A DNA stretch of 19,472 bases from a virus: UHGV virus genome UHGV-0294315; one strand, given 5' to 3'. Positions 4,798 to 19,472 of this stretch are shown here, in pieces. Every line of letters starts with the position of its first letter. The first letter of the stretch is position 1. The notes under the pieces were generated by a model. The model did not search any database, was not told the origin of the DNA, and was given only the letters and a program-made list of their open reading frames with translations. Position numbers and translations under genes: made by a program.

Positions 4798-5038
4798 TAT
4801 TGGTGAGAATCGAAGCAACTTGTCGTGCCAATCGAGCCATATCGTCGTCAACGACGCCCCATTCAAGAACAGCAAGCAGCATTGAGAACTTTGGAATCCA
4901 GTCCCTCTTCCACCTGCTGATCTGCGACTTATCAACGCCCACAGCTTCCGCTGTCTTCTCAGTTCCAAGCATTGCGATTTTGTTAAGCAACGCACTCTCG
5001 ATTCTTAGAGCCTCGTTGCGTTTGTTTGCACGAACCAT
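4745..5038 (-). CDS. cII: Transcriptional activator CII
   Basis: From the internal ATG: MVRANKRNEALRIESALLNKIAMLGTEKTAEAVGVDKSQISRWKRDWIPKFSMLLAVLEWGVVDDDMARLARQVASILTNKKRPAATERSDQIQMEF, essentially lambda CII (97 aa). The track's 5' extension to 5125 is not used. Confidence 0.9.
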   Translation of the reverse strand: MVRANKRNEALRIESALLNKIAMLGTEKTAEAVGVDKSQISRWKRDWIPKFSMLLAVLEWGVVDDDMARLARQVASILTNKKRPAATERSDQIQMEF

Positions 5039-5096
5039 ATGTAAGTATTTCCTTAACAAATAAGAAGTTATGCGCACCAACTGATGCGCGTTGTAT

Positions 5097-5140
5097 TCCC
5101 GCATTTCGGCGGGAATGAGGACCATGACTGTTAAAGAGCG
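5097..5140 (-). promoter_or_regulatory. nutR-like site (boxA plus boxB hairpin) between cro and cII
   Basis: On the minus strand: CGCTCTTTAACA (boxA, rrn-like), then 14 nt, then TCCCGC-CGAAAT-GCGGGA hairpin. The same boxA/boxB pair recurs at nutL. Confidence 0.55.
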
Positions 5141-5146
5141 GTGTTA

Positions 5147-5341
5147 CTATTTGTTTTTCTTGTTGCTTGGGAAAGGACGAACTTCCTCTCCAATCACACT
5201 GCCATCAGGCTTTACCGTAACCATAATGTTACGGCCTGCCAGAATGGCCTTGCTGATAGCGCACTGGATTACACCAAAGTCACTGGCTGCTTTAGCCTGT
5301 CCATGGATTTTGGCGTAATCGGCAAGTGTCATTCGAATCAT
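5147..5341 (-). CDS. cro: Cro repressor
   Basis: [64 protein letters not shown] aligns with lambda Cro along its length. Start chosen at ATG 5341, which sits 6 nt after GGAGA; the track's GTG at 5347 abuts the RBS. Confidence 0.8.
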
Positions 5342-5371
5342 ATGCACTCTCCGTTATTAACCATGAACAAA

Positions 5372-5437
5372 GAATACTACAGGTATTCAAAGCAATCAAT
5401 ACTCAGGGTATTTTTAGTTTAAGTACCTTAGCTATTA
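5372..5437. promoter_or_regulatory. OR operator cluster (three sites) with divergent PR/PRM
   Basis: GAATAC-TACAG-GTATTC (5372-5388, perfect), CAATAC-TCAGG-GTATTT (5397-5413), and a weaker AAGTAC-CTTAG-CTATTA (5421-5437). Centre spacing 25 and 24 bp, between divergent cro and cI. Confidence 0.6.
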
Positions 5438-5447
5438 GAATTAAGCT

Positions 5448-6164
5448 ATGGAAAATAAAAAATCACTGACGACAGAACAGCTCGAAGACGCTAAGCGGCT
5501 TAAGGCTTTGTATGAGTCAAAAAAGAAAGAATTGGGAATAACCCAATACTCAATCGCTGATGAACTGGGTATCACCCAAGGAGCGGTAGGGCATTATCTT
5601 AATGGCAGAAACGCGCTAAACGTTGAGGTCGCATCTGGTTTTGCACGTTTGTTGCAAGTCTCAATTGCTGATTTTAGCCAGTCAATTGCTGCCAAGGTTG
5701 CAGAACAGGCAGAAAGCCTTAAGAGCGATGCCAACGTAAGGTATGCAGGGGAATACAGAGCAGGAAAGAGGTATCCGGTGTTAAGCAGTATCCAGGCTGG
5801 CTCGTGGTGTGAAGCATGCGAACCATACACCATTAAAGACATAGATGTTTGGCTTGAGTCTGACGCGCATATTCAAGGCAATGCGTTCTGGCTTAAAGTG
5901 GAAGGTGATTCAATGACGGCACCGGTTGGGTTAAGCATTCCAGAGGGAACATTCGTTCTTTTCGATACCGGAAGGGAGGCGATCAACGGCAGCCTGGTCA
6001 TAGCAAAACTTTCTGACTCTAACGAAGCAACATTCAAGAAGCTGATAATCGACGGCGGAAATAAATACCTCAAGGGACTTAACCCTGCATGGCCTCTCGT
6101 GCCAATCAATGGAAACTGCAAGATTATAGGCGTTGCAATTGAGACAAAACTAAGGCTGGTTTGA
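5448..6164 (+). CDS. cI: CI-type prophage repressor (HTH N-terminal domain plus S24 LexA-like autocleavage domain)
   Basis: N-terminus LTTEQLEDAKRLKALYESKKKELGITQ resembles lambda CI; C-terminus FWLKVEGDSMTAPVGLSIPEG...ATFKKL...NGNCKIIGV resembles lambda CI / P22 C2. No Shine-Dalgarno upstream, consistent with a leaderless PRM transcript. Confidence 0.9.
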   Translation: MENKKSLTTEQLEDAKRLKALYESKKKELGITQYSIADELGITQGAVGHYLNGRNALNVEVASGFARLLQVSIADFSQSIAAKVAEQAESLKSDANVRYAGEYRAGKRYPVLSSIQAGSWCEACEPYTIKDIDVWLESDAHIQGNAFWLKVEGDSMTAPVGLSIPEGTFVLFDTGREAINGSLVIAKLSDSNEATFKKLIIDGGNKYLKGLNPAWPLVPINGNCKIIGVAIETKLRLV

Positions 6165-6183
6165 TCACGCAAGGGGGACGCTT

Positions 6184-6552
6184 ATGGTTGGAACCGCTAT
6201 AGCAAGCTTTTTTGGGATGTTGGCAATCTCAACAATTTACGGCTTAGCGCATGCTTTTATTGCGAAATCTCTATCAGAAAAAATAAGCCAGGCTTGGGCG
6301 CATAGATCAGCTCGTTTCATGATTCTAGTGGTCATAGCAATACAAGGGATATCTGCATTTATCCTCTATGGATCAAGCTTATACCTGTTGTATCAAGGCG
6401 CGACATTTACGCCTTACACCAGTGATTACGGAACTCTATACGATGGTAGTGAAGACATCTCTATGGCTTGGATCGTCTTTGGTTTATCTATGGCCGTGTC
6501 TGTTGTAGCAGACATCATTAAGGTAATTCTCGTCTTAACCTTCGCTGACTAA
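6184..6552 (+). CDS. Small integral membrane protein (122 aa, 3-4 predicted TM helices) co-transcribed with cI, in the rex position
   Basis: RBS AAGGGGGA 6 nt before ATG, 19 nt after the cI stop. Hydrophobic segments (e.g. VGTAIASFFGMLAISTIYGLAHAFIA, FMILVVIAIQGISAFILYGSSLYLLY). No family recognised. Confidence 0.6.
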   Translation: MVGTAIASFFGMLAISTIYGLAHAFIAKSLSEKISQAWAHRSARFMILVVIAIQGISAFILYGSSLYLLYQGATFTPYTSDYGTLYDGSEDISMAWIVFGLSMAVSVVADIIKVILVLTFAD

Positions 6553-6637
6553 CCCATAATCCCGGCAGCAATAGCTATCGGGATCCACTTCACATATCCC
6601 GCATAAAAAGCACTGAACAAGCAGATACCGAAAAAAT

Positions 6638-6724
6638 AAATATCCTTTGTATTCATTTGTTTATCATTATTTCATCAAAAATAAATACCTTGGGTATTTA
6701 CACAATAAAATACCTACAGTATTC
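6638..6724. promoter_or_regulatory. OL operator cluster / pL region
   Basis: AAATAT-CCTTT-GTATTC (6638-6654), AAATAC-CTTGG-GTATTT (6683-6699, perfect), AAATAC-CTACA-GTATTC (6708-6724), the same consensus as OR. Candidate -35 TTTACA at 6697-6702. Confidence 0.55.
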
Positions 6725-6770
6725 TTTAGCCATCAGCAGGACGCTGGTAGCCAAACGGAACAGATTGGCA

Positions 6771-6812
6771 GGCTCTTTAACATTGATGGGATTGTCCCGC
6801 CGAAATGCGGGA
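6771..6812 (+). promoter_or_regulatory. nutL-like site (boxA plus boxB hairpin)
   Basis: GGCTCTTTAACA (boxA) at 6771-6782 followed by the TCCCGC-CGAAAT-GCGGGA hairpin at 6795-6812, the same boxB as nutR. Confidence 0.55.
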
Positions 6813-6983
6813 ACCAAAGAGTAGTTGGCTTTGGGGTGTGGTGAAGGGTTCATGGACGGGAATATGTCGCACGTAAAGCGGCGAGGCCTGCGGGACTATT
6901 GCCGAATTGAAGTCGGACGAAGCGGGTCGAAATGGGTCTCCCACCGACCACACCACCAAAGCTAATCATCTGAGGAACAGAAA

Positions 6984-7103
6984 ATGTTAGACATCATTAC
7001 CAACCCAATTCTCGGTGGTTTAGTTACCACATTCGCCATCGGCTTCGGTTTCACCATCTGGTCTGAAGTAGATGACTGGATGTGGGAACGCAAAAACAAA
7101 TAA
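6984..7103 (+). CDS. Possible 39-aa single-pass membrane peptide in the pL leader
   Basis: RBS GAGGAA 7 nt upstream; MLDIITNPILGGLVTTFAIGFGFTIWSEVDDWMWERKNK has a hydrophobic core and a charged tail. Short, so coding status is uncertain. Confidence 0.35.
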   Translation: MLDIITNPILGGLVTTFAIGFGFTIWSEVDDWMWERKNK

Positions 7104-7143: not shown

Positions 7144-7449
7144 ATGACAGTAGTCATTACATATCTGGCTGACGATAACGCCAGAAATCGCCGCAGAGCA
7201 CGCAGACAGGCTCAACGTGAACAGGCAATGCAAGAGCAGCGACTGGCGCGAAAAATTGCGCTAAAGCTCTCTGGTTGCGTCAGGGCAGATAAAGCAGCAT
7301 CACTCGGAAGCCTTCGCTGCAAGAAGGCAGAAGAAGTCGATCGTAAACAGAATCGTATTTACTACCGCAAGCCACGCAGTGAAATGGGTGTGACATGCTC
7401 AGGCCGCCAGAAGCAACGCGGAAAATCAATTCCAGCTTATTACGATTGA
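7144..7449 (+). CDS. N: N-like transcription antiterminator (arginine-rich motif; P22 gene 24-like)
   Basis: RBS GGAGGT then ATG; MTVVITYLADDNARNRRRARRQAQREQ carries an arginine-rich motif near the N-terminus and resembles the P22 gp24 start (MTVITY...). First gene after OL/nutL. Confidence 0.7.
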   Translation: MTVVITYLADDNARNRRRARRQAQREQAMQEQRLARKIALKLSGCVRADKAASLGSLRCKKAEEVDRKQNRIYYRKPRSEMGVTCSGRQKQRGKSIPAYYD

Positions 7450-8071: not shown

Positions 8072-8166
8072 GCACTGTGTATTCATTCCAACGAGTGAAT
8101 ACACGGAGCAATGTCGCTCGTAACTAAACAGGAGCAGACTTGTTCTGATTATTGGAAATCTTCTTT

Positions 8167-8194
8167 GCCCTCCAGTGTGAGGGCAGTTTTTTTT
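8167..8194 (+). terminator. Intrinsic terminator upstream of the coiled-coil gene
   Basis: GCCCTC-CAGTGT-GAGGGC hairpin followed by AGTTTTTTTT. Confidence 0.55.
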
Positions 8195-8206
8195 GACGGA
8201 GGATAT

Positions 8207-9175
8207 ATGAGTGAAGTAACAGATTTAGTTGTTATTGAAAAAGCAAATGCAATGACTGTATTTCAGTCTGCCGACCAGATTGAAGAAATTCTCCAAAAGG
8301 TTGAACGTGAAGTTATGTCCTTTGTGCCTGATATCACAACGGCAAAGGGCAGAAAGGAGATCGCTTCTCTGGCGTATAAAGTTGCGCAGACGAAAACATA
8401 TCTCGATGGTCTTGGCAAAGACCTTGTTGCTGAACTGAAGGAAATTCCAAAGCTAATTGATGCCAACCGCAAGACAGTGCGTGATCGCCTTGATGAGCTG
8501 AAAGCCAAGGCACGCCAGCCTCTTACTGATTATGAGGAAGAACAGGCGCGGATTAAAGCCGAAGAAGAAGCTAAGGCAGCAGCTGAAGCTCTCGCAAAGC
8601 AAATTGAGTCTGACCATGAAATAGCGATTTTGATGGATCGCGAATTTGACCGCCAAAGAGAAGAGGCAAGACTCAAAGCGGAGCAGGAAAAGCGAGAGCA
8701 TGAAGAACGCTTAAAAAGAGAAGCTGAAGAGAAAGCCAGAGCTGAAGCCGAAGCAAAGGCAAAAGCCGAAATTGAAGCAGCAGCAAGACGAGAAGCAGAG
8801 GCTAAGGCCGCAGCGGAACGTGCAGAGCGTGAACGCATTGAAGCCGAGCAACGAGCACAGCGCGAAGCAAAAGAGGCAGCAGAACGAGCTGAAAGAGAAA
8901 AGCAGGCAGCAATTGAAGCAGAACGCAGAAAAGCACAGGAGGAGGCTGAACGAATCCGGCGCGAGGCTGAAGCAAAAGAGCAAGCCAGAATAGCAGAAGA
9001 AAAAAGAATCAAGGAAGAAGAAGAGCGTAGAGCAAAGGATAAAGCTCACCGGAAAGAAGTAAATAACAAAATACTTGCTGACCTTATCAAGGTTGGCGCA
9101 TCAGAAGATGTTGCTAAAAATATCATAACAGCCATCGTAAAAGGCGAAGTATTCGCAACAAAAATAACCTACTAA
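8207..9175 (+). CDS. Coiled-coil protein with a TolA-like Glu/Ala/Lys/Arg-rich central repeat region (322 aa)
   Basis: Start at the internal ATG 8207 (RBS GGAGGA); the track's 5' extension would include the terminator. Middle section is a long EAKAKAE / ERAERE-type low-complexity helix flanked by unique N- and C-terminal segments. Confidence 0.6.
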   Translation: MSEVTDLVVIEKANAMTVFQSADQIEEILQKVEREVMSFVPDITTAKGRKEIASLAYKVAQTKTYLDGLGKDLVAELKEIPKLIDANRKTVRDRLDELKAKARQPLTDYEEEQARIKAEEEAKAAAEALAKQIESDHEIAILMDREFDRQREEARLKAEQEKREHEERLKREAEEKARAEAEAKAKAEIEAAARREAEAKAAAERAERERIEAEQRAQREAKEAAERAEREKQAAIEAERRKAQEEAERIRREAEAKEQARIAEEKRIKEEEERRAKDKAHRKEVNNKILADLIKVGASEDVAKNIITAIVKGEVFATKITY

Positions 9176-14818: not shown

Positions 14819-15090
14819 AATAGCGGGTAAAATATTTTTCACATCTAAAAAACACCATTCCAATCAATCCCCTGCCGCGCCAAGTAGATGTCTGCAGGGG
14901 ACACTTTAAAGACCTTTCTCTACATTTCACTTCATTACATAACCACTTAAAAAAACAGTAAGTTATCACCGAATCGGCCTGATTTTCATTTCAGTTAATT
15001 TCATGACATTACAACCTCGTGATGGTATAAGTGATGGTATTCCCCAGTTCGATATGCAGATACCATCAATCTACCAAAATGAGTACAGAT

Positions 15091-16365
15091 ATGGCCATTA
15101 ATGTGCTTTCCCCCAAACAGATAGAAAACGCCAAGCCGAAGACCAATGATTACAAACTTACCGATGGAGGGAGTTTGTATCTACTGGTACGAAAGACTGG
15201 TGGAAAATACTGGCGTATGAATTATCGTTTTGATGGAAAACAAGTGACATTGGCATTAGGGGTCTACCCAGATGTCTCACTTGCAACAGCGCGGAAACGG
15301 CGTGATGAAGCCAGGCAACTACTAGCCGATGGTCGTGATCCTCGCGAAGCAAAGAAACCCAAAAAGGAAGACCCAATTTCCCCCACGTTCGAGAGTGTTG
15401 CCAGAGAGTGGCATAGTAGAACGATAGGGCATCCTGAGTGGAAAGAGATCACCCGTAAAAAAATTCTCCGAGAAATGGAAAACCACCTCTTTCCTGCCAT
15501 CGGTTCAAAGCCTATCGATACGCTCAAAACCCGTGACTTGATGCCGATGCTGGTTGAGATGACTGAGAAAGGAATTGGTGCCACAACGAGCCGGGTAAAA
15601 ACCACTATGACGAGCATCTTCCGTTATGCCGTGCAACGTGGAATTGTCGATTACAACCCTGCCCACGATCTAAAAGGTGCAATTACGACCCCCAAAGTAC
15701 GACATCGCCCCGCACTACCTCTCGAACGTTTACCTGAACTGTTAGCGAAAACGAGAAGTTACACGGGAAGACCATTGACTCGCCTAGCAGTTCTATTTTC
15801 CCTGCACACTTTTGTGCGATCCAGCGAACTACGACATGCCAGATGGGAGGAGATCGACATTGAAAATGGGCTATGGACGATACCAGGACAACGTGAAGAG
15901 ATCGCAGGGGTTAAATTCTCAGAGCGGGGTGCAAAGATGGGGGCTGCTCATTATGTCCCGCTATCTAGTCAGGCTATCGGGGTACTGGAGGATATAAGGA
16001 AAATCAGTGGTGAATATCTGCTGGTTTTCCCCGGTGACAGCAACCCATATAAACCGATGAGCGAAAACACAGTTAATAAAGCACTGCGAACGATGGGTTA
16101 CGACACTCAAAGTGATGTTTGCTTGCATGGGTTCAGGGCGATGGCCTGCTCTGCACTGACCGAATCAGGACTCTGGTCACGCGATGCAGTTGAACGGCAG
16201 ATGAGTCACCAAGAAAGAAACGAAGTGCGGGCAGCATATGTGCATCTTGCGCAGCACATGCAGGAACGCCGCAGAATGATGCAATGGTGGTCTAATTATC
16301 TGGAACTAAATAAGGACGAATTTCATGCTCCTTATGACTTATCAGGTATTAACATTATCAATTAA
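15091..16365 (+). CDS. int: Tyrosine integrase, P4-type (DUF4102 arm-binding N-terminus plus phage integrase catalytic domain)
   Basis: MAINVLSPKQIENAKPKTNDYKLTDGGSLYLLVRKTGGKYWRMNYRFDGKQVTLALGVYPDVSLATARKRRDEARQLLADGRDP is a typical P4-family integrase N-terminus. Start could also be ATG 15079 or the track's GTG 15031. Confidence 0.85.
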   Translation: MAINVLSPKQIENAKPKTNDYKLTDGGSLYLLVRKTGGKYWRMNYRFDGKQVTLALGVYPDVSLATARKRRDEARQLLADGRDPREAKKPKKEDPISPTFESVAREWHSRTIGHPEWKEITRKKILREMENHLFPAIGSKPIDTLKTRDLMPMLVEMTEKGIGATTSRVKTTMTSIFRYAVQRGIVDYNPAHDLKGAITTPKVRHRPALPLERLPELLAKTRSYTGRPLTRLAVLFSLHTFVRSSELRHARWEEIDIENGLWTIPGQREEIAGVKFSERGAKMGAAHYVPLSSQAIGVLEDIRKISGEYLLVFPGDSNPYKPMSENTVNKALRTMGYDTQSDVCLHGFRAMACSALTESGLWSRDAVERQMSHQERNEVRAAYVHLAQHMQERRRMMQWWSNYLELNKDEFHAPYDLSGINIIN

Positions 16366-16395
16366 ATTTTCTTATAATTTAAAACAGAGGTCATA

Positions 16396-17277
16396 ATGCA
16401 GCATTCAAAAGAGAATGAAACTATATTCTTAGGAAATCTATGGATTGACAAAAAAATACCACCATTAGAATATTGTTCATTTGAACGCGCTTCAAGACTA
16501 TTAGAATGCGAGATTGATGATTTATTACACCTATACGAAATAGGCGCTTTTAATATCGCATTCAAGGCGGATGGACTTGCAGTTAGATTTAATGTTAATT
16601 TCCTCTATAAAAATCAGAAAATGGAAATTGACTTAATTCATCCCGTATTAACTAATCAATCACTAGAGATGGAATTTTCAACAATATGGTATGACCTTAA
16701 AGATGACTCCTTTGAACATTTTGAAAATGGGCTTCAAATTATAGGATTTGCCTGTGGTATTTGGTACGCCGATGATATGATAAGTGACATAAAAAATGGA
16801 TTAGCTATAGATCCAGATTATGAATTCAGGCTTAAACCGGTAAAAATACGAGATAATGTTTTGATGGCAACGGCCTCATATGAAGGAAATAAGGTCATTG
16901 ATATTCCATTTGAAGATCTTCTTATCATGCGAAGAGATTTAGAGTTAATATGGAAATCAGTAAAAACTGGAATTCCTATGCCAAGTTTACTTACGAAAAG
17001 AATTTCATCTGAACCTAAAATCCCCAAGCGATTAAATAACACTGCTGAGCATCATGCAAAAAATAGGGGGGGGTTATTAAATGCAGCCATATATATATTA
17101 GCAAAATACCCAAGCGAATGTCGTGGTGAAAGAAAAGAGATAAGTCCTGAAAAGTGGACTAACGCCATAATTAAACATTTAGGAGAGCTACCTCCAATAT
17201 TTATCACTAATGAACAAGAAATCTTAAGAAAATTACGATTAGCGGTTAATCATGCGGGATTAAAACAAAAGGGGTAG
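16396..17277 (+). CDS. Hypothetical 293-aa protein, AT-rich standalone gene between int and alpA
   Basis: Own consensus -10 TATAAT (16373-16378) and RBS AGAGG; long intact ORF in strongly AT-rich DNA. No domain recognised. Confidence 0.6.
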   Translation: MQHSKENETIFLGNLWIDKKIPPLEYCSFERASRLLECEIDDLLHLYEIGAFNIAFKADGLAVRFNVNFLYKNQKMEIDLIHPVLTNQSLEMEFSTIWYDLKDDSFEHFENGLQIIGFACGIWYADDMISDIKNGLAIDPDYEFRLKPVKIRDNVLMATASYEGNKVIDIPFEDLLIMRRDLELIWKSVKTGIPMPSLLTKRISSEPKIPKRLNNTAEHHAKNRGGLLNAAIYILAKYPSECRGERKEISPEKWTNAIIKHLGELPPIFITNEQEILRKLRLAVNHAGLKQKG

Positions 17278-17379
17278 ACTGAAACAATCTACAGGTAGAG
17301 TTGATTACACTACCTTCACAGCATTTTGATATCCCCATAGTATCTGCCGTGTTCATTACATAACACGGCAGGTAATTTC

Positions 17380-17595
17380 ATGACATTAAAAACTTATCCT
17401 ATCACTGGACATGCCCGCCCACGAGCTACTGCTGACTTTTTGCAAATAAGTACGGTTACTCTCTGGCGCTGGGAAAAGAACAATCCTGAATTTCCCAAAT
17501 CTATACGCATTTCAAAACGGGTATCTGTTTACGATGCACAAGAAATTAGGCAGTGGGTTAAAGCTCAATCAGCAGGATTGGAGGAAGTAGTGTAA
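17380..17595 (+). CDS. alpA: AlpA / HTH_17-family transcriptional regulator (P4 Vis-like)
   Basis: 71 aa, ATADFLQISTVTLWRWEKNNPEFPKSIRISKRVSVYDAQEIRQWVK matches the AlpA/excisionase HTH pattern. Confidence 0.65.
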   Translation: MTLKTYPITGHARPRATADFLQISTVTLWRWEKNNPEFPKSIRISKRVSVYDAQEIRQWVKAQSAGLEEVV

Positions 17596-17644
17596 TGACA
17601 ATATTAACAAAGCTGGGGAGAAAAAAGCCTCCCCAACGTATTAA

Positions 17645-17839
17645 TCAATTCTTTGGTTCTAAACCTCGGCTTTGTAACTCTTTGCGTAGAATGCGCTTGA
17701 TCCAAGCCGCTAGCGATTCATCGCCATCCTGCTGTTGTGCTTGTTCCATCAGTTCACGCAGTTCAGGGTCAAGTCGGAACTGGAATGGCGGATTCCCACG
17801 TCTTTCATTTTTGTGTGTTGACACGTCAATTACACCCAT
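17645..17839 (-). CDS. Ribbon-helix-helix (Arc/CopG/MetJ-like) DNA-binding protein
   Basis: 64 aa; NPPFQFRLDPELRELMEQ resembles an RHH beta-strand/helix-A signature. Its promoter region carries repeated TGTAATG half-sites. Confidence 0.5.
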   Translation of the reverse strand: MGVIDVSTHKNERRGNPPFQFRLDPELRELMEQAQQQDGDESLAAWIKRILRKELQSRGLEPKN

Positions 17840-17873
17840 TGTAATGTATTTATGTGTAATGACACATTACACA
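17826..17873. promoter_or_regulatory. Operator-like array of TGTAATG / CATTACA half-sites at the RHH gene start
   Basis: Perfect palindrome GTGTAATG-ACA-CATTACAC (17854-17872) plus further copies TTGTAATG (17839-17846) and AATTACAC (17829-17836). Confidence 0.45.
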
Positions 17874-17955
17874 CAGAAAAACAAAATAGCAACGCCCCGG
17901 AGTGTTTGCAGCACCACCGAGGCGTCTGACCAGCACGTTATATGAGGTAACGAAG

Positions 17956-18132
17956 ATGGCTAAACAGAAGTGTACCTGGTTATTTGCGGCGATCAACCGC
18001 AGTCAACGTAATGCCCGTCCGGTAATGTTAAGGATCACCGCAGATAACGAGCGATCAGCGCGGCGCAGACTTGCCCCGGACTATGTACTGAGCTTTGCCG
18101 GGCGCATTCCCTGCGGAGGTGAACATGCGTAA
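17956..18132 (+). CDS. Icd-like host cell-division inhibitor (P4-family), 58 aa
   Basis: RBS TGAGGT; MAKQKCTWLFAAINRSQRNARPVMLRITADNERSARRRLAPDYVLSFAGRIPCGGEHA resembles Icd-like proteins of P4-type elements (W-FAA...ER-ARR-LA-DY-L-FAGRIP pattern, from memory). Confidence 0.5.
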   Translation: MAKQKCTWLFAAINRSQRNARPVMLRITADNERSARRRLAPDYVLSFAGRIPCGGEHA

Positions 18133-18484
18133 TTATCCGCATCCCGGCGAACGCTGGCAGCATGAACGTGGCTGGACGGTCACGATTATCCGATTAATAG
18201 AAGCCTCGCCCTCTGTGGCGCTGGTTAATCCTGAATTCAGCTGTGAAGTGCTGATACGTCATGACAGCGACAACCAGCTTTCTTCCTGCCCTCTGGCATG
18301 GTTTGAACAGCGATATACGCGCCTGTTTGATGTACCGCTCTTTAAGCCTGCACCAGCTCCTGCAGGCGGTAGTGGTTCCGGCCCGCTGACACTGCATCCG
18401 TCTGTGCTATTTATCCGCTGGCGGGAGCGTAGCATATGGTGTTCTGCTGAGCCTGATGACGGTCACTATTCAAAGTTTCTCTGA
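18125..18484 (+). CDS. Hypothetical protein (119 aa)
   Basis: Start at internal ATG 18125, overlapping the Icd-like stop. Confidence 0.45.
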   Translation: MRNYPHPGERWQHERGWTVTIIRLIEASPSVALVNPEFSCEVLIRHDSDNQLSSCPLAWFEQRYTRLFDVPLFKPAPAPAGGSGSGPLTLHPSVLFIRWRERSIWCSAEPDDGHYSKFL

Positions 18485-18515
18485 CAAAACACCGCTGAAA
18501 ACGGAGTAATCCACA

Positions 18516-18800
18516 ATGAATATTTCAAACGGGCACAACGGTGCTCAGGGCCAGACTTTGCCTGAAAAACACAATACCGGTGCTTTTGCCTATGGGTTGT
18601 CAGAGGACGGTTTCGGAAAGCTGACCCGCGCAAGAAATGCCTGCGACATGCTCCAGCTTCTCTTTTCTGAATACCCGTCTCAGGCCGGAGCACTGGACGC
18701 AGGCTTTGCGCCTGGTGTCGCCGCGCTGATGGAGTACCTGCGGGCAGATTTGACGGATATTGCACACAGCTGCGCACTGATTGAAGGAGGTGCCAGATGA
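18516..18800 (+). CDS. Hypothetical protein (94 aa)
   Basis: RBS GGAG upstream of ATG; intact ORF. Confidence 0.5.
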   Translation: MNISNGHNGAQGQTLPEKHNTGAFAYGLSEDGFGKLTRARNACDMLQLLFSEYPSQAGALDAGFAPGVAALMEYLRADLTDIAHSCALIEGGAR

Positions 18801-19180
18801 ACCAGCCGCAGGTTTCCATTTTCCCGGCAGAAATGACCACCGCGCTTTACCGGTGGGCTATTGCTTCAGCATGGCGGCAGAAAATGCTGAACGAAACTGG
18901 CAATGATCAGTATGGTCCGCACAGCCTGACGGTGGAGCGTATTGAAATGGCCATTGCGCTGCATATCGAGTGCGCACTGATTAACGAGTACGGCGAAGCA
19001 CAGGGCGCCGCTGCCGCGCTGGCACTGCTGACTGACATGCTGGAGCCGTCACTGCTGACCGCGCCGCCGGTACTGACCGCGCGCGGTTGTGAAGTAATGG
19101 CGGAGATGTACCGCACGCTTCCGGCGGCCTTTGATGTCTGCTGCAGTACCGGTGTGACGTTGTATCAGGGGGAAGTATGA
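18797..19180 (+). CDS. Hypothetical protein (127 aa)
   Basis: ATGA-coupled to the genes on both sides. Confidence 0.5.
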   Translation: MNQPQVSIFPAEMTTALYRWAIASAWRQKMLNETGNDQYGPHSLTVERIEMAIALHIECALINEYGEAQGAAAALALLTDMLEPSLLTAPPVLTARGCEVMAEMYRTLPAAFDVCCSTGVTLYQGEV

Positions 19181-19472
19181 CAATACAGACGGTTACGCAG
19201 ATTTCAGCCGCCGCGCGGGGGAAATGGCCCGTTATTCTGCAGATGCTGCGTATTGATGTACCTGAAAACGGCAGGCACGGTCCCTGCCCGAAATGTGGGG
19301 GCAAGGATCGTTTTCGCCTTGATGACCTTGACGGGCGCGGGACGTGGATCTGCAGCCAGTGTGGCAATGGTGACGGTCTGGATCTGGTTAAGCTCGTAAC
19401 CGGTTACAGCGTCAGAAAGGCTGCGCAGGAGGTGGCGCAGATGCTTAATGTGCCGGATGTGCAGGAACTGCC
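19177..19472 (+). CDS. P4 alpha-type primase, N-terminal zinc-binding domain (gene runs off the right edge)
   Basis: Open to the window end; GPCPKCGGKDRFRLDDLDGRGTWICSQCGNGDGLDLV is the primase zinc-ribbon pattern CPxCGG...CxxCG. Confidence 0.6.
   Translation, partial: MTIQTVTQISAAARGKWPVILQMLRIDVPENGRHGPCPKCGGKDRFRLDDLDGRGTWICSQCGNGDGLDLVKLVTGYSVRKAAQEVAQMLNVPDVQEL

Follow-up and report, generated by a model that had tools for sequence, protein, structure and literature searches.

The subject of this analysis is hkaS, a gene of 122 codons located immediately downstream of the gene for the cI repressor in the window, i.e., in the whole 19,472-nucleotide (nt) stretch of the virus genome UHGV-0294315. 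hkaS is a genuine gene under purifying selection and adjoins a cI gene of the HK620 type in every lineage looked up; thus it behaves as a fixed part of the immunity cassette, unlike the cargo typical of the slot that follows phage repressor genes. It is an uncharacterised, non-homologous member of a well-known class, the accessory genes of repressor operons. Few phage genes are expressed in every cell of a lysogen, and the gene downstream of the prophage repressor is one of them; the characterised occupants of this slot (rexAB, hex, and bstA) are involved in exclusion or abortive infection, with rexAB and hex also participating in control of the switch. By analogy, hkaS might shield the lysogen, and with it the prophage, from superinfection by other phages, a reading that we prefer tentatively and regard as possible rather than probable. 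It could represent a new one-gene membrane exclusion factor or, alternatively, a membrane-bound lysis-lysogeny modulator.

hkaS in the HK620-type immunity cassette

An earlier sequence-only reading of the window had described an open reading frame (ORF) of 122 residues that begins 19 nt after the cI stop behind a strong ribosome-binding site and lies between cI and the OL operators. Both statements hold (Table 1), although that reading missed that the ORF is already catalogued, being hkaS of coliphage HK620 (AF335538, AAK28867), and is thus not new as a sequence. The product, labelled 'unknown' in the HK620 record, is 96.7% identical to that encoded in the window, with four amino-acid differences. 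A full-length match is provided by phrog_6534 ('unknown function'; E 5.9e-79, residues 1–122 on profile positions 1–122). Sixteen phage records contain hkaS at 96.7–100% identity, including HK620, HK630, HK140, mEpX2, HZ41, HF4s, vB_EcoP-611R6, phi296, phi367, and two Stx2c-converting phages. The gene is also found, always on the chromosome, in 146 of 5,426 complete Escherichia coli genomes (~2.7%, varied hosts), where it is called as a coding sequence (CDS) in all 25 genomes sampled and is always labelled 'hypothetical protein' among the matches listed. Homologues with 82%, 60%, 59%, 56%, and 52% identity are present in Hafnia, Salmonella, and metagenomes. Full-text literature searches found no paper on hkaS or its function, and the paper on phages of enterohaemorrhagic E. 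coli that describes phi296 and phi367 does not mention it.

The association between hkaS and its repressor gene is unbroken. In the complete E. coli genomes, HK620-type cI is present in 146 genomes (147 places) and hkaS likewise in 146 genomes (147 places), and the two genes adjoin wherever the same genome occurs in both lists. Among the IMG/VR loci with upstream sequence, HK620-type cI directly precedes hkaS in 79 of 79, and cro accompanies both genes in the same 79. All of the divergent lineages that were looked up (Salmonella, Hafnia, and metagenomes) have the order cro-cI-hkaS-N. The flanks vary, both the replication genes at one end and N with its neighbours at the other; similarity to the window ends at about 5000–5050 (72 of 80 loci) and at about 6800–6850 (76 of 80), and therefore the mobile unit comprises cro-OR-cI-hkaS-OL/PL-nutL (~5000–6850). 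As a control, full-length lambda-type cI was found in 618 complete E. coli genomes and rexAB in 99, so that most lambda-immunity prophages of E. coli are devoid of rex. The tie of hkaS to one repressor type, which is the sole feature setting it apart from ordinary slot cargo and which also escaped the sequence-only reading, is subject to two caveats: recombination could hardly find a joint in so short a spacer as that between cI and hkaS, and the phage records include a cI relative at 65% identity, from Cronobacter phage ENT39118, that is not accompanied by hkaS.

The architecture of this region is well conserved on both sides of hkaS. The cI–hkaS spacer measures 17–20 nt in every copy examined, down to 52% identity, with an AAGG(A/G) core kept in all lineages; in HK620 it is 2 nt longer than in the window. 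A consensus scan of the plus strand from PRM to the end of hkaS revealed no promoter- or terminator-like site, and the spacer contains no hairpin. Past the hkaS stop, the window contains a hairpin (–15.3 kcal/mol, z –2.6), and a stem-loop is located within 30 nt of the stop in five of five lineages, the sequences of which are unrelated there. The Hafnia-type copy forms the same stem as the window, with base changes, followed by TTT, and lineage L099 has a canonical GC stem with a T-run (GGCCCGC-TATTA-GCGGGCTTTCTTGT). The hairpin in the window has no clear T-run and was not called by a simple terminator scan. In the HK620 record (AF335538), the feature that its authors termed 'tIMM, termination of cI transcript' sits between hkaS and OL3. 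Taken together, the comparative architecture provides good evidence that the repressor transcript would consist of cI and hkaS and end just past the latter. At the other end, a candidate –10 hexamer TAGAAT would begin the PRM transcript at the cI ATG or adjoining it (leaderless or nearly so), as in lambda. With neither terminator nor promoter after cI and with a hairpin after hkaS, we infer that hkaS is expressed in the lysogen, transcribed together with cI from PRM, and from PRE during establishment of lysogeny.

A very hydrophobic ORF of 35 residues (MNTKDIYFFGICLFSAFYAGYVKWIPIAIAAGIMG, 6549–6656) on the minus strand converges on hkaS and overlaps both its stop and the putative terminator hairpin; the annotation of HF4s lists it as a CDS. 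Its candidacy as a partner of hkaS or a type I toxin was rejected, as only 10 codons of it are left in the Salmonella lineage and lineage L007 has lost it by deletion. It is preceded by neither a promoter-like site nor a Shine-Dalgarno sequence and is probably not a gene.

Coding constraint on hkaS is evident at every distance. The ORF is intact and exactly 122 codons long in 80 of 80 IMG/VR loci. Segregating sites in these loci amount to 18 synonymous and 21 non-synonymous in hkaS (ratio of non-synonymous to synonymous polymorphism, pN/pS, 0.36), compared to 33 and 6 in cI (pN/pS 0.05), and the non-synonymous share differs between the two genes (Fisher p = 7e-4). When E. coli, Salmonella, and L007 are compared codon by codon, synonymous divergence (dS) is saturated, whereas non-synonymous divergence (dN) reaches 0.34–0.42 in hkaS and ~0.08 in cI; the HkaS protein thus evolves four to seven times faster than cI. 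Two Salmonella copies of hkaS differ by ten synonymous and zero non-synonymous changes, and the length of 122 residues, 35 invariant residues, and the charge pattern of the loops are kept down to 52% identity. Within E. coli, the substitutions are mostly conservative I/V/L/M or S/T/A exchanges located in the helices. A compositional 'moron' signature was sought and is absent, with ~43–44% GC in hkaS and ~41–50% in cI.

In HF4s, hkaS is frameshifted by the loss of one base in the A-run 6277–6282. HF4s has been isolated and sequenced, and its host is named; lytic growth therefore presumably does not require hkaS, as is expected under every functional hypothesis considered here. Other rare frameshift alleles, some of them located at T6 (6208–6213) or A6 (6277–6282), are represented by the database proteins P0005, P0007, and P0009; in P0007, compensating +1 and +2 changes at both homopolymer runs recode the second half of the first transmembrane helix. 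Such alleles may reflect sequencing error, slippage, or occasional inactivation.

The HkaS protein and its family

HkaS is predicted to be a prophage-encoded integral inner-membrane protein that consists of little else than its three membrane helices. Kyte-Doolittle hydropathy delineates three hydrophobic segments (~3–27, 43–71, and 92–121), and an AlphaFold2 model based on the family alignment (mean predicted local distance difference test score, pLDDT, 92.4) places helices at residues 2–29 (transmembrane helix 1, TM1), 31–38 (short and amphipathic), 41–74 (TM2), and 89–121 (TM3), with a small β-hairpin at 78–86. Of the three to four hydrophobic helices anticipated by the sequence-only reading, three are thus supported by both approaches, and a fourth is not. 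Loop 1 is basic (K28, K33, R41, and R44 against E32), whereas loop 2 is acidic (D81, D87, E90, and D91); across the lineages, the net charge varies from +3 to +5 in loop 1 and from –1 to –4 in loop 2. By the positive-inside rule, with which the three helices comply, the N terminus and loop 2 are probably periplasmic, and loop 1 and the C terminus cytoplasmic.

Conservation was mapped on five divergent intact HkaS sequences. The periplasmic loop is the least conserved, with 4 of 19 residues invariant (21%), compared to 7 of 15 (47%) in the cytoplasmic loop that includes the amphipathic helix, and all of the last eight residues, ILVLTFAD (100%). The conserved residues of TM3 (W96, F99, S106, D110, K113, and V117) are located on one face of the helix, within ~50 degrees. 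Because of this pattern, the working surface appears to be formed within the membrane and on its cytoplasmic side, a location that suggests contacts between helices of HkaS and a partner, or self-association, rather than periplasmic recognition.

That HkaS represents an orphan family, found only beside the HK620-type repressor gene, is strongly supported. A remote homology search, proposed along with topology prediction by the sequence-only reading, extended beyond the expected absence of a link to RexB, in that no relative of any kind was found outside the HkaS family. Pfam yielded only sub-threshold hits (Cation_ATPase_C, which scored 19 bits where the cutoff is 27, and TssN), which were dismissed as artefacts of hydrophobic composition, and NCBIfam gave no match. 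All 12 clusters retrieved by a word-indexed search of 5.8 billion proteins, as well as the two hits obtained when 1.84 billion cluster representatives were searched exhaustively with a profile, are inside the family. No sequence relative is present in the PDB, and Foldseek returned no significant match in the PDB or BFVD. A scan of GTDB genomes with two peptide patterns confirmed no locus, probably as a consequence of the limits of the patterns and of representative genomes; it probably does not indicate true absence, because E. coli and Salmonella genomes carry hkaS.

A class I holin, which would have a similar topology (three TM helices, N terminus out and C terminus in), was rejected as an identity for HkaS: the protein ends with ...LTFAD and lacks a charged tail, its gene is located in the immunity rather than the lysis region, and no holin family is present among the Pfam or PHROG hits.

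Other features of the window

The window comprises a lambdoid early region that is inverted relative to the standard lambda map, with genes for a DnaB-type helicase, an O-like replication protein, cII, and cro on the minus strand, and cI and an N-like gene on the plus strand. Its immunity region is that of coliphage HK620, with identities of 99.6% for cI, 97% for Cro, and 96.7% for the ORF. The features of this region are listed in Table 1.

Table 1. Positions of the features of the immunity region in the window
Feature	Position	Strand	Remarks
cro, HK620-type cassette	5147–5341	–	64 residues from ATG; the listed ORF begins at an upstream GTG; 97% identical to HK620 Cro
OR1–OR3 operators with PR and PRM	5372–5437	.	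Aligned to the annotated HK620 record
Candidate PRM –10, TAGAAT	5436–5441		Read from the sequence
cI repressor, HK620 immunity type	5448–6164	+	238 residues; Pfam HTH_3 and Peptidase_S24; TGA stop ends at 6164
cI–hkaS spacer, 19 nt	6165–6183	+	Shine-Dalgarno AAGGGGGA, 6 nt before the ATG
hkaS	6184–6552	+	ATG start; 122 residues; three predicted transmembrane helices
Stem-loop after the hkaS stop	6559–6584	+	Likely terminator or 3' stabiliser of the cI-hkaS transcript
Position equivalent to tIMM	6634–6664	+	Transferred from AF335538 by alignment; only a weak AT-rich hairpin in the window
Operator-like 17-mer AAATATCCTTTGTATTC, candidate true OL3	6638–6654	.	13/17 matches to OL2
OL2; OL1; PL (TTTACA-17-TATTCT)	6683–6699; 6708–6724; 6697–6725	+	HK620 annotation, alignment, and promoter scan

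The operator-like 17-mer is identical in the window, HK620, HF4s, and L003 (a Salmonella lineage), has two substitutions in L007, and occurs as a close variant in L099. The position of OL3 annotated in the HK620 record (6661–6677 in the window), in turn, is not conserved, and this operator may have been misplaced in AF335538.

Two ORFs located farther along the PL operon also match families listed as being of unknown function. A 39-residue ORF with a single helix (6984–7103, plus strand; phrog_7482), preceded by a ribosome-binding site GAGGAA, lies between nutL and the N gene (7144–7449) and would be the first gene of the operon; matches to HK620 and most related phages are broken between OL and N, which suggests that this stretch is absent there. 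The region 8111–9175 (plus strand) encodes a protein of 354 residues with a long coiled coil rich in Glu, Ala, Lys, and Arg (phrog_1376). Proteins encoded at similar places in related records are named 'TolA' or 'Gam antitoxin/Agt', which looks like annotation based on composition. A scan of the window against Rfam revealed no RNA family.

The window is an integrated prophage. The region 15031–19472 begins with the gene of a 444-residue tyrosine integrase (15031–16365), followed by genes that are 100% identical to those of an E. coli chromosomal island and encode a helix-turn-helix regulator, an Icd-like protein, DUF5375, and a TOPRIM/DUF927 primase; farther along the island, in NZ_CP031134, there are genes for Psu and an Ogr/Delta-like protein. 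The island is a P4-like satellite in tandem with the lambdoid prophage, and because of this arrangement the integrase may be encoded by the satellite and not by the prophage.

Possible functions of HkaS and comparison with known systems

In the reading that we tentatively prefer, namely protection of the lysogen against superinfection, hkaS would be the second cistron of the HK620-type repressor operon within the cassette cro-OR-cI-hkaS-terminator-OL/PL-nutL, and its product would directly block the entry of an incoming phage genome within the membrane, as proposed for P22 SieA and for T4 Imm, a small inner-membrane superinfection-exclusion protein. The block would involve the polar stripe of TM3 (S106, D110, and K113) together with the conserved cytoplasmic face. 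A direct block is favoured because HkaS has no soluble sensing or catalytic domain and no sensor partner; small inner-membrane proteins made by prophages and lacking soluble domains are, where their role is known, typically blockers of genome entry. The faster change of its amino acids in comparison with cI would also fit a gene engaged in conflict, as is common for such genes. Several observations weigh against protection of this kind. Defence cargo of the slot normally turns over, whereas hkaS is retained in 146 of 146 genomes, in 79 of 79 loci, and in every divergent lineage, with no case of loss or replacement. Conservation of HkaS is lowest in the periplasmic loop, the part that the proteins of an incoming phage would encounter first, and highest in the cytoplasmic loop and at the C terminus. 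The conservative exchanges within E. coli look more like relaxed constraint or lipid-facing tolerance than like an arms race. No match to the defence models of PADLOC-DB v2 was found at E up to 1, and the PHROG matches, phrog_6534 and one that is negligible, include none annotated as superinfection exclusion. An exclusion or abortive-infection phenotype of hkaS is, moreover, proposed purely by analogy.

Within the same preferred reading, a small share falls to a channel similar to RexB, in which an oligomer of HkaS would form a gated pore and depolarise the cell upon superinfection. Such a channel would suit the location of hkaS in the rexB slot, and the conserved intramembrane residues Q54, S106, D110, and K113 could line its pore. 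HkaS is, however, not homologous to RexB and has three helices rather than four, and a sensor resembling RexA is missing, since nothing is inserted between cI and hkaS and the flanks past OL are mosaic. A triggered leak of the RexB type is therefore improbable in its own right, and less likely than a direct block of entry.

The strict linkage of hkaS would agree no less with participation in the immunity switch than with a plug-in defence gene. As an integral accessory of the switch, HkaS would be anchored in the membrane and modulate lysogen stability, establishment, or induction, its cytoplasmic loop and C terminus making contact with its own CI or Cro, with RecA, or with FtsH/HflKC, the membrane-bound protease system controlling CII; analogies would be provided by 434 Hex, which blocks RecA-stimulated cleavage of the repressor, and by lambda RexA/RexB, which bias the switch. 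This role is consistent with the absolute 1:1 linkage to one repressor type, which extends to lineages with saturated dS while lambda cI and rexAB are uncoupled, with module boundaries (~5000–5050 and ~6800–6850) that enclose cro, cI, and hkaS together, and with the cytoplasmic location of the most conserved surface of HkaS. The two best-studied genes of the slot both act on the switch (PMC3564112 and the preprint bioRxiv 10.1101/2021.04.19.439022). Nevertheless, HkaS is homologous to neither Hex nor RexB, it exposes barely 20 residues to the cytoplasm, and the spacer of 17–20 nt, in which there is no recombination joint, could by itself account for the tight linkage. In addition, the closest cI relative outside the family, that of Cronobacter phage ENT39118, works in the absence of hkaS, and rare frameshift alleles persist in prophages. 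Altogether, a role as a switch accessory seems doubtful, if clearly worth considering. A stricter version, in which hkaS would be a fixed third component of the switch, co-evolved with its own CI and Cro and tuning stability, establishment, or induction from the membrane, e.g., through retention or protection of the repressor or through an effect on FtsH/HflKC, has to be considered somewhat unlikely. If true, it would explain why the gene has been neither lost nor swapped across divergence that saturates dS, while most lambda-type regions have no rexAB.

We can also speculate that hkaS is a lysogenic-conversion gene unrelated to phages, conferring immunity to a bacteriocin or modulating a host membrane transporter or stress response. 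Immunity proteins against pore-forming colicins and microcins have three to four helices and roughly 70–180 residues, and HkaS is similar to them in its size, its topology, and the lack of soluble domains. Its conserved intramembrane polar face would suit recognition between helices, constitutive expression from the repressor operon would presumably suit an immunity function, and among complete E. coli genomes the gene is present in 2.7%, representing varied hosts. However, neither Pfam nor NCBIfam gives a match to colicin or microcin immunity or to any other family, no toxin gene is linked, and the HkaS family is confined to a single phage immunity cassette, making such a function quite unlikely. 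The last reading to be considered, that hkaS is without function, having arisen as an ORF by chance or persisting beside cI as a decaying remnant, is the least credible of all and very improbable. Although the family is an orphan with no annotated function, pN/pS is about seven times that of cI, and frameshift alleles occur occasionally (HF4s, P0005, and P0007), the intact ORF in 80 of 80 loci, the CDS calls in 25 of 25 sampled genomes, the retention of 122 residues and of 35 invariant ones past synonymous saturation, the ten synonymous versus zero non-synonymous differences between two Salmonella copies, and the conserved Shine-Dalgarno sequence all speak for a function; conservation has already largely refuted this reading. 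In practical terms, hkaS is tractable, as it encodes an orphan of 122 residues with a confident model, and the mEpX2 record lists E. coli K-12 MG1655 as a host.

Comparison with the characterised genes of the slot reveals likeness in position and divergence in sequence. As proposed by the sequence-only reading, a membrane-protein gene occupies the rex slot as the second gene after cI, a placement borne out by position and predicted topology. Lambda rexB, like hkaS, is located downstream of cI and upstream of OL, shares the strand of cI, and codes for an inner-membrane protein that is small and polytopic (by prediction in the case of HkaS), and the products of both would come from PRM in the lysogen. 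RexB has four transmembrane helices and 144 residues, whereas HkaS has three and 122. The expectation that the two are unrelated was confirmed, with an hhalign probability of 0.6% and no Pfam RexB hit at E up to 1. No rexA adjoins hkaS, which is separated by 19 nt from cI, and no conserved partner gene is found past OL, where the flanks are mosaic. The genes also differ in their attachment to the repressor, since rexAB accompanies lambda-type cI only in the smaller share of cases (99 of 618 genomes), and hkaS always lies beside its own repressor gene. RexA/RexB also assist the transition from lysogeny to the lytic state (bioRxiv 10.1101/2021.04.19.439022).

In phage 434, the repressor of which is among the characterised repressors more similar to cI of the window (52% identity), hex follows the repressor gene immediately, as hkaS does, and is carried on the PRM transcript. 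Hex is translated from PRM mRNA and prevents RecA-mediated cleavage of the repressor (PMC3564112), and hence genes of this slot can act on the repressor itself. As annotated, Hex consists of 134 residues with an N terminus resembling a signal peptide and has no further hydrophobic helices; it differs in this respect from HkaS and is not homologous to it (hhalign probability 0.05%). The prophage BTP1 of Salmonella provides another example, bstA, which is located downstream of the repressor gene, presumably shares its promoter, is highly expressed in lysogens, and mediates abortive infection (PMC8585504). BstA is found at the places where phage DNA replicates, and self-immunity is conferred by a DNA element, aba (PMC8585504); HkaS, in turn, is a predicted membrane protein without a PADLOC match. 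The same post-repressor slot is occupied in epsilon34 by genes 44/45, which are uncharacterised (PMC2629481).

Similar to HkaS in character is SieA of P22, an inner-membrane protein proposed to interfere with phage DNA-delivery (ejection) proteins and their conduit at the membrane (PMC10461980). Both are, HkaS by prediction, small integral inner-membrane proteins encoded by prophages, with no enzymatic domain. The two are unrelated in sequence, and sieA is located elsewhere in the P22 genome, outside the repressor operon. With regard to the slot itself, the view of the sequence-only reading that it hosts exclusion genes expressed in lysogens agrees with the literature on the region from cI to N: rexAB, bstA, and hex have experimentally shown exclusion phenotypes or action on lysogeny (PMC8585504, PMC3564112, PMC2629481).

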